From a virus (Duplodnaviria > Heunggongvirae > Uroviricota > Caudoviricetes), in IMG/VR virus record IMGVR_UViG_2654587792_000025: 14,932 bases of DNA; one strand, written 5' to 3'. A model generated the notes under the pieces. The model was not told where the DNA came from. It worked only from the letters and a program-made list of their open reading frames with translations, and searched no databases. Positions 1 through 741 of this stretch are shown here, in pieces (position 1 is the first letter of the stretch; each line of letters starts with the position of its first letter). Position numbers and translations under genes: made by a program.

Positions 1-741
1 AATATTAATGAAACTATTAAGATTAAGTGTGGCACAACGTTAGCTCGCCATTTATGTTCAAACCCATATACAGGTTCAACATTAGAGATAGGTAACAGCG
101 CCATTGATTTAGAAGAAAAGATAAGATTGTGTAATACTTTGAAAAATAAACAATATCAGTGGGTTATTACTGAAGCCTATGAGTTACTGGAAGACTATAT
201 TGAGGCAATATATGTCTATACTGTATGTGTTCGAAATGATTTATGGTCCTCAAGTGATTTTGGTAAGGTTGAAGATGATGAAAATGGGAAAAGGGAAGTT
301 TATTACAGATTATTAAAAGCAAAAAGTAACCCATCGAAAAAAATAACTAAAATTTTCAGAAATAAAATACCTGGCTTCAAAGAGATAGAAACAAACAACA
401 AGATTGGCAAAAACTATCGCTTTAACATCAAGCTAATTGAACTACTAAGACATACAATAGTACACAATAGTGGACGATTCAATGATACAGAAAAATTTAT
501 AAATAAGGTTTTAGATGAATCTGAAATAAACGGTAAGAATAGAGTTATTGGAGAAAGAGCTGTTAGAAGTTACATTACTAAAGTGCAAGAAGATGATATT
601 GTGATGCTCTTAGAAAGACCATCTGAAATTTTAGGTTCTTTTGGTGGGTATTTTAACAGAGCAAAATTTTTACTAAGTGATATTTTAGAATACTCACTAA
701 TCATTAAAGAAGAACTAAAATCATATCTAGGCAATCATTAA
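1..741 (+). CDS. 5'-partial accessory protein with HEPN-like R-x4-H motif (LLRHTIVHNSG); candidate abortive-infection / RNase-type defence protein
   Basis: Frame 1 is open from base 1 to the TAA at 739-741 (no stop in the first 42 codons), so the gene starts left of the window; the ORF-track start at 127 is a TTG and probably internal. The region is visibly AT-rich with K/N/I-rich codon usage unlike the rest of the window. A hairpin terminator follows directly. The product call rests only on the short R-x4-H motif. Confidence 0.6.
   Translation, partial: NINETIKIKCGTTLARHLCSNPYTGSTLEIGNSAIDLEEKIRLCNTLKNKQYQWVITEAYELLEDYIEAIYVYTVCVRNDLWSSSDFGKVEDDENGKREVYYRLLKAKSNPSKKITKIFRNKIPGFKEIETNNKIGKNYRFNIKLIELLRHTIVHNSGRFNDTEKFINKVLDESEINGKNRVIGERAVRSYITKVQEDDIVMLLERPSEILGSFGGYFNRAKFLLSDILEYSLIIKEELKSYLGNH

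Follow-up and report, generated by a model that had tools for sequence, protein, structure and literature searches.

An exchanged accessory gene of an SSU5-type phage-plasmid encodes a putative solo HEPN-like effector

The gene at the left edge of the viral DNA analysed here (14,932 nt, "the window") codes for a protein with an invariant R-x4-H motif, and it is likely that this protein is genuinely HEPN-like, with the arginine and the histidine as catalytic residues. Judged from gene content and gene order, the window is an SSU5/pHCM2-type phage-plasmid, and the edge gene is a horizontally exchanged accessory gene (moron) in a slot between a glutaredoxin/PhoH block and a tRNA cluster. The protein probably represents a HEPN-like family that is new and acts alone as a conflict effector. 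The explanation as a whole, an exchanged moron encoding a solo HEPN-like RNase that serves as a defence effector, has in our view about an even chance of being right, and the defence or exclusion role taken by itself comes slightly short of even.

An earlier reading of the letters alone (the sequence-only reading) described the ORF as cut by the window edge and as unusually AT-rich, and both descriptions hold. On the plus strand, frame 1 has no stop codon from base 1 up to the TAA at 739-741. Positions 1-1500 of the window share 97.6% identity with Escherichia phage CMS-2020a (CP053388.1), where the corresponding locus (L001:5833-6741, 98% identical) has a complete ORF of 302 aa. The window covers residues 57-302 of this protein, so that 56 codons at the 5' end and the region before them are missing from it. 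The upstream sequence that the sequence-only reading had asked for is thus available from CMS-2020a, with a GAGG 7 nt 5' of the ATG; residue numbers below refer to this full-length version. A promoter scan gave no plus-strand sigma-70 promoter upstream of the gene at its threshold; by eye, a sub-threshold candidate, TTGAAG-17-TAGAGT, matches at 8/12 positions. The GC content of the edge gene is 0.301 (GC3 0.231) versus 0.416-0.494 in the other 17 ORFs of at least 70 aa. Among the other 741-nt stretches of the window the lowest value is 0.394 (mean 0.454, sd 0.024), so that the gene lies about 6 sd below the remainder.

The remaining genes of the window encode an ATP-dependent DNA ligase, a primase, a DnaB-like helicase, ParA and others. 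Their order is that of the SSU5/pHCM2-type phage-plasmids Cyrano and Klebsiella pJN2-26, and ligase, primase, helicase and ParA match SSU5-type elements. Clinical E. coli and Klebsiella often carry SSU5-type phage-plasmids. Cyrano does not carry the edge gene: its similarity to CMS-2020a ends at the start codon of glutaredoxin and restarts one base past the stop codon of the ORF (L001 6742, window 742), and the slot is filled by an oppositely oriented gene of 351 nt. In an E. coli relative (L008), identity is 95-99.7% for the backbone proteins (integrase, glutaredoxin, ligase and two ORFs) but only 55.6% for the allele in the slot. In the Klebsiella elements the backbone proteins are about 80-84% identical, two flanking ORFs 34% and 63%, and the alleles of the edge gene 38-39%. 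Wherever phage-plasmids have the gene, it is in the same slot and on the strand opposite to its neighbours. Presence and absence of the gene, together with allele replacement in otherwise near-identical backbones, back the horizontal acquisition that had been suggested before from base composition.

In PLSDB, a homologue is present in 58 plasmids (29 from Escherichia, 27 from Klebsiella and one each from Citrobacter and Pseudomonas), all 58 of them non-mobilizable and, among the matches listed, about 108-126 kb in size save for the 190-kb Pseudomonas plasmid. The ligase is found at 80% identity or more in about 669 plasmids, and the accessory gene is thus carried by roughly one in ten of these elements (about 9%). 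On phage-plasmid contigs of about 110 kb, the gene also occurs as many alleles that are truncated to 77-262 aa or split into three pieces (clusters of P0001 and P0007; P0005 and P0006; CP012114), which suggests recurrent inactivation among natural isolates. In the Klebsiella phage-plasmids, the DNA a few kb before the slot on its upstream side (L010/L012 443-2718) includes a colicin M-like gene, a microcin-like ORF and a YafO-type toxin; conflict genes therefore gather on that side of the backbone.

The window protein is a member of phrog_35492 (PHROGs v4, function unknown; E = 1.4e-170, 567 bits, its 246 residues against profile positions 57-302 of 302). This PHROG comes without functional annotation, without a HEPN-like reading and without the wider family described here. 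Scans of the window protein against Pfam, NCBIfam and PADLOC gave no match (Pfam and PADLOC at E<=10), and the homologues met in databases are all named 'hypothetical protein'. Word-indexed homologue searches returned just 9-11 proteins, even with a profile of 133 sequences. An exhaustive HMM search with a six-sequence profile yielded 452 cluster representatives at E<=1e-3, 142 of which reach 1e-30; since representatives stand for clusters at 50% identity, the family comprises at least 452 clusters. Nearly all members have 280-320 aa and a single matched stretch and are therefore stand-alone proteins. They are spread over Proteobacteria, Campylobacterota, Bacteroidota, Spirochaetota and Nitrospirota.

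The motif that drew attention to the gene, LLRHTIVHNSG, is encoded at nt 445-477 (R at 448-450, H at 463-465, G at 472-474). A single R-x4-H in 246 residues is about what is expected by chance. In an alignment of 133 homologues with a mean column identity of only 24%, however, R206 and H211 are present in every sequence, as is E117, and the motif is therefore not a chance occurrence; the R-x4-H proposed from the letters alone is thereby borne out. Both residues are found in 153 of the 156 retrieved sequences, the exceptions being fragments. Position 207 is H in 129 and N in 4 of the 133 sequences, V210 is conserved in 131 and G214 in 129, which gives the family signature l-R-[HN]-x-I-V-H-x-x-G; its minority form with N207 is the canonical HEPN RNxxxH. 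Further columns with high counts are N105 (130), W110 (130) and Y127 (129), and the positions conserved to at least 90% comprise N105, Q107, W110, Y127, W138, E186, N189, H207, V210 and G214. E120, which is on the same helix as E117 (residues 93-133), is conserved to 90%. Residues 105-140 (nt 145-252; N-x-Q-Y-x-W...EAYE-x-FE...Y...FW) gave weak but repeated matches to the C-terminal region of the CmlS halogenase (residues 359-435 of PDB 3i3l, E = 0.009; NCBIfam halo_ClmS in seven members, best E = 1.3e-3). This similarity probably reflects a shared helical motif.

The AF2 model reached a pLDDT of 76.5 with seven sequences and a pLDDT of 94 with a pTM of 0.90 with 133 sequences. It has four long helices (residues 2-50, 93-133, 195-212 and 276-300), with a beta-hairpin (69-91) after the first. 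We assigned these four helices as the core, and all statements on helix positions depend on this choice (Table 1). The third helix ends just past H211, and the following loop opens with G214.

Table 1 Features of the window; residues are those of the full-length protein
Feature	Position (nt)	Strand	Basis and remarks
Accessory gene, C-terminal part	1-741	+	Translation; 246 codons plus stop; phrog_35492 member
Long core helix, residues 93-133, taken as HEPN helix-2	109-231	+	AF2; N105, Q107, W110, E117 (nt 181-183), E120, Y127
Insert of four short helices, residues 134-194	232-414	+	AF2; conserved W138, D142, R176, E186, N189
Third core helix, residues 195-212, ending in R206-H207-x3-H211; putative RNase motif	415-474	+	AF2; G214
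Family-specific insert, residues 215-275, two helices and a beta-hairpin	475-657	+	AF2
C-terminal long helix, residues 276-300, taken as HEPN helix-4	658-732	+	AF2
Hairpin, 8 bp, GC-rich	746-765		A-tract on one side, T-tract on the other
tRNA-Ser(UGA)	922-1008	-	ARAGORN
tRNA-Thr(UGU)	1222-1297	-	ARAGORN
tRNA-Asn(GUU)	1300-1374	-	ARAGORN

Structures listed with the AF2 model are, with the listed value in brackets, the HEPN toxin 8xdj (8.8), AF0298 (2hsb, 8.8), HI0074 (1jog, 8.4), TT1696 (1ufb, 8.3), HepT (SO_3166; 5yep, 8.3), the sacsin HEPN domain (3o10, 8.1), the HEPN toxin 7ae2 (7.8), the HEPN domain protein 4nqf (7.8), YutE (1ylm, 7.7), TTHA0636 (1wwp, 7.7), AbiA (8oz7, 7.5), Csm6 (6tug, 7.3), ST0689 (1wol, 7.2) and a KNTase (6nlt, 6.9). 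Roquin and LsoA are lower in the list, and the alignments span 85-93% of those small targets. The shallow model made from seven sequences gave the same picture. A Foldseek search against the PDB returned only generic helical bundles (E>=0.05).

The HEPN domain is defined as two alpha-hairpins that form a four-helix bundle, with a residue after the arginine that is 'mostly N, D or H' and with another conserved acidic residue close to the motif on helix-2, typically in the context Ex3[K/R] (Anantharaman et al. 2013, PMC3710099). The protein conforms to much of this definition: R-x4-H is conserved, position 207 belongs to the same class of polar residues, and in the predicted structure the motif is at the end of the third core helix, where the definition places it, with residues 134-194 as an insert between helices 2 and 3. 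E117 is invariant on the putative helix-2, but the Ex3[K/R] context is absent. The insert of residues 215-275 between core helices 3 and 4 has no equivalent in minimal HEPN domains. On the grounds of topology in the model, R206 and H211 would be equivalent to the HEPN active site.

Sequence comparison did not reveal such a relationship. The profile searches proposed by the sequence-only reading (HEPN, Abi_2, RnlA/LsoA) came out negative, as no Pfam or PADLOC model matched the window protein. When all 133 members were scanned against Pfam, NCBIfam and PADLOC, no family exceeded its threshold; at noise level, two members matched HEPN_Apea (5.5e-3), one EcoEI_R_C (3e-3), two Csx1/Csm6 (3.3e-3) and one Cas13a (0.013). 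A match of seven members to NCBIfam TrmL (2e-5) was discarded, since it is due to a short G-x-P-x-SIL string and not to homology. Family consensus sequences had no match in the profile libraries, and searches of PDB sequences with two family profiles returned nothing relevant, the best hit being the short CmlS stretch. For a direct comparison, 79 genuine DUF86/HepT sequences were collected from metagenomes with a DUF86 consensus as query; this consensus was validated, as it matched HepT chains in the PDB and 1509 plasmids with a DUF86 annotation. Aligned to these 79 sequences by hhalign, the family obtained a probability of 0.2%, and the alignment to the DUF86 consensus itself was not significant either. 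If the alignment is extended by force, R206 and H211 fall on the R and H of DUF86, preceded by a shared I-x3-R/K-x3-P anchor and a 15-residue gap; the register agrees, but this carries no statistical weight.

Three outcomes had been named beforehand as speaking against a HEPN domain: a predicted structure without HEPN-like fold, motif residues that vary among homologues, and a confident match to an unrelated family. None of them was found, as the motif is invariant across a diverse family and the profile scans point to no other family with confidence. The HEPN reading is therefore partly supported: invariant residues and predicted topology speak for it, and profile searches, hhalign and Foldseek were all non-significant. 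The likeliest alternative is a non-HEPN helical bundle, an unrelated enzyme or binding protein, either with a metal site made up of E117/E120 and H207/H211, like that of DinB-like or other four-helix-bundle metalloproteins, or as a non-catalytic regulator. The spacing of H207 and H211 (i, i+4) puts both on one face of the helix, as a metal site would have it; we regard this alternative as unlikely.

If the protein is HEPN-like, it differs clearly from the known representatives. Minimal HEPN toxins of the HepT type (DUF86; 5yep, 8xdj, 7ae2) and the HEPN-T structures 2hsb, 1ufb and 1jog share no significant sequence or profile similarity with it. Compared with HepT-type toxins it is 2.3 times larger, has no MNT antitoxin next to it, and has in addition an N-terminal helix of 50 residues, the beta-hairpin 69-91 and a 60-residue insert between helices 3 and 4. 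Models of AbiD/AbiF (Abi_2), AbiV, ApeA and RnlA/LsoA from PADLOC and Pfam did not match the window protein, and the two HEPN_Apea matches mentioned above are the sole ones of this kind in the family. The closest parallel may be HepS, a solo HEPN anticodon nuclease that is made constitutively from the Salmonella prophage Gifsy-1; the tail-tip protein J of an invading phage opens its auto-inhibited tetramer, and HepS then cleaves tRNA-Thr (including UGU), tRNA-Ile and tRNA-Ser (PMC13043305). The R/H motif of HepS is at residues 100-105, in contrast to R206/H211 here, and the two proteins were compared by description only; no ORF with R100-x4-H105 was found in the LT2 Gifsy-1 record.

HEPN RNases work without a metal ion, and as a rule it takes a dimer to complete the active site (PMC3710099, PMC8266594). 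From the analogy with such enzymes we infer RNase activity, dimerisation and control by a trigger, just as the homology to HEPN is itself inferred. In the model that we favour, R206, H211, the polar residue 207 and E117 of core helix 2 would form the site of a metal-independent endoribonuclease, which, as in other HEPN enzymes, could be completed across a dimer. The protein would be made in the lysogen in an auto-inhibited state, and an invading phage or stress would activate it; auto-inhibition or sensing of the trigger may reside in the family-specific parts, namely the N-terminal helix, the beta-hairpin and the insert of residues 215-275. Once active, it may cut tRNA, mRNA or rRNA, and the resulting arrest of translation would lead to abortive infection or superinfection exclusion, as with HepS. 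There is no antitoxin-like partner, and the protein would therefore have to be harmless until activated. It is thus a plausible candidate for a single-gene anti-phage or toxin effector.

A HEPN-like RNase could also serve the phage-plasmid's own programme, for example in host shut-off, lytic RNA turnover, counter-defence or transcript processing. The gene is carried by a phage, adjoins the phage tRNA operon and early/replication genes and has no evident trigger or partner, and phage-encoded RNases with such roles are well established. We nevertheless judge this decidedly unlikely. A function in the phage programme is hard to reconcile with a gene that Cyrano and all but about 9% of related backbones do without, that is compositionally foreign and opposed to the flanking phage operons, and whose alleles diverge far faster than the backbone, as is typical of conflict genes. 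Moreover, most family members are chromosomal. A scan of species-representative genomes gave 41 loci, most of them on bacterial chromosomes and in unrelated contexts, among them Lonsdalea, Undibacterium, Variovorax, Collimonas, Oceanospirillum, Sulfurimonas, Sulfurovum, Desulfocapsa, Geobacter, Flavobacterium, Bacteroidales, Treponema and Nitrospira. Save for two Lonsdalea strains, no neighbour family recurs within three ORFs of the gene at these loci. Within two positions, some neighbours are of the mobile or defence type (mad3, OLD/AriA-like ATPases, PDC-S15, PDC-S09, an Eco57I-type methylase, FRG, DUF4365, Bro-N, integrases and a P2 tail gene) and others are housekeeping genes; defence genes are a minority of the neighbours.

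HEPN toxins are frequent components of toxin-antitoxin systems (PMC7641770, PMC4621449), and the element is a low-copy plasmid prophage. The gene might thus encode an addiction toxin that stabilises the phage-plasmid, with a hidden antitoxin in the form of a small RNA or a micro-ORF in the 1.08-kb cassette; the truncated alleles, which suggest that the gene may be costly, would agree with this. The neighbourhood argues against it. In the phage-plasmids the gene is flanked by glutaredoxin or PhoH and by the tRNAs, with no DUF86-like or MNT partner, and no MNT or other conserved neighbour was seen at the 41 genomic loci. Inspection of the cassette for an antitoxin or partner revealed only unconserved ORFs of 21-61 aa, and neither repeats nor structured RNA were found upstream of the gene. 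Most related phage-plasmids are, in addition, stable without it. We consider an addiction module very improbable.

The edge gene is one of the few rapidly exchanged loci of SSU5-type phage-plasmids, and such loci tend to hold genes for conflicts among phages and between phage and host. If the HEPN reading is true, a new HEPN family of at least 452 clusters from many phyla has gone unrecognised by domain and defence databases, a partner-free family distinguished by its N-terminal helix, beta-hairpin and 60-residue insert. This would provide a single-gene anti-phage candidate and a profile that defence-finding tools currently miss. The general picture would stay the same, since HepS, AbiV and ApeA are known examples of solo HEPN effectors on temperate phages.

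All three tRNAs are on the minus strand, and the ORF converges on them as the sequence-only reading had stated. The tRNA block resembles that of the phages P1, P7 and D6, and the Thr and Asn tRNAs are also present in P1-type phages. It is tempting to speculate on a 'nuclease plus immune tRNA' module in which a HEPN-like anticodon nuclease would cut host tRNAs and the adjacent phage-plasmid tRNAs would act as resistant substitutes, so that competing phages or plasmid-free segregants would be starved of translation and the element's own programme kept running; this is hardly probable, since the tRNA sets vary independently of the gene and are also found in P1-type phages, and the adjacency is more simply a shared insertion hotspot. 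A dependence of the tRNA set on the edge gene was rejected: Cyrano has Ser, Thr and Asn tRNAs without the gene, CMS-2020a and the E. coli relative have Ser, Thr, Tyr and Asn tRNAs with it, and the Klebsiella elements, which also carry the gene, have Ser and Asn tRNAs alone. By comparison of these sequences, the tRNA cluster is itself variable. The extra tRNA-Tyr(GUA) lies between the Thr and Asn tRNAs (L001 7311-7397, L008 6467-6553) and is absent at window positions 1298-1300 and in Cyrano.

The hairpin between the ORF and the tRNAs had been taken for the gene's own terminator. The hairpin is real: the fold energy is -17.5 kcal/mol (z = -3.1) for nt 735-790, where there is a second, small hairpin as well. 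Its ownership has to be revised. A consensus terminator scan called it on the minus strand only, as the end of the tRNA operon, with a tail of TTTTTTG (6 T) on this strand versus 4 U on the plus strand, and the region is kept at 97.8% in Cyrano, a phage without the edge gene. Therefore, it is a backbone terminator of the tRNA operon, and probably a shared one that acts in both directions, for the tRNA operon on the minus strand and for the accessory gene on the plus strand.

Two related 20-nt inverted repeats flank the tRNA cluster, with arms at 842-861/900-919 (38-nt loop) and 1641-1660/1743-1762 (82-nt loop), both with the termini CACArCGTTGAG...CTCAACGyTGTG; they may serve in processing or as terminators, or else delimit a small mobile or recombination unit with the tRNAs inside. 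The spacer between tRNA-Ser and tRNA-Thr, about 205 nt long (1009-1221), has copies of a 23-nt direct repeat at its two ends (1003-1025 and 1208-1230). In Cyrano these two tRNAs are just 8 nt apart, and the spacer of the window is therefore an insertion; CMS-2020a and the E. coli relative L008 have a comparable one. A match to the sRNA STnc100 in Rfam covers 970-1154 on the minus strand with 44.8 bits, just below the gathering score of 47 (E = 3.6e-8).
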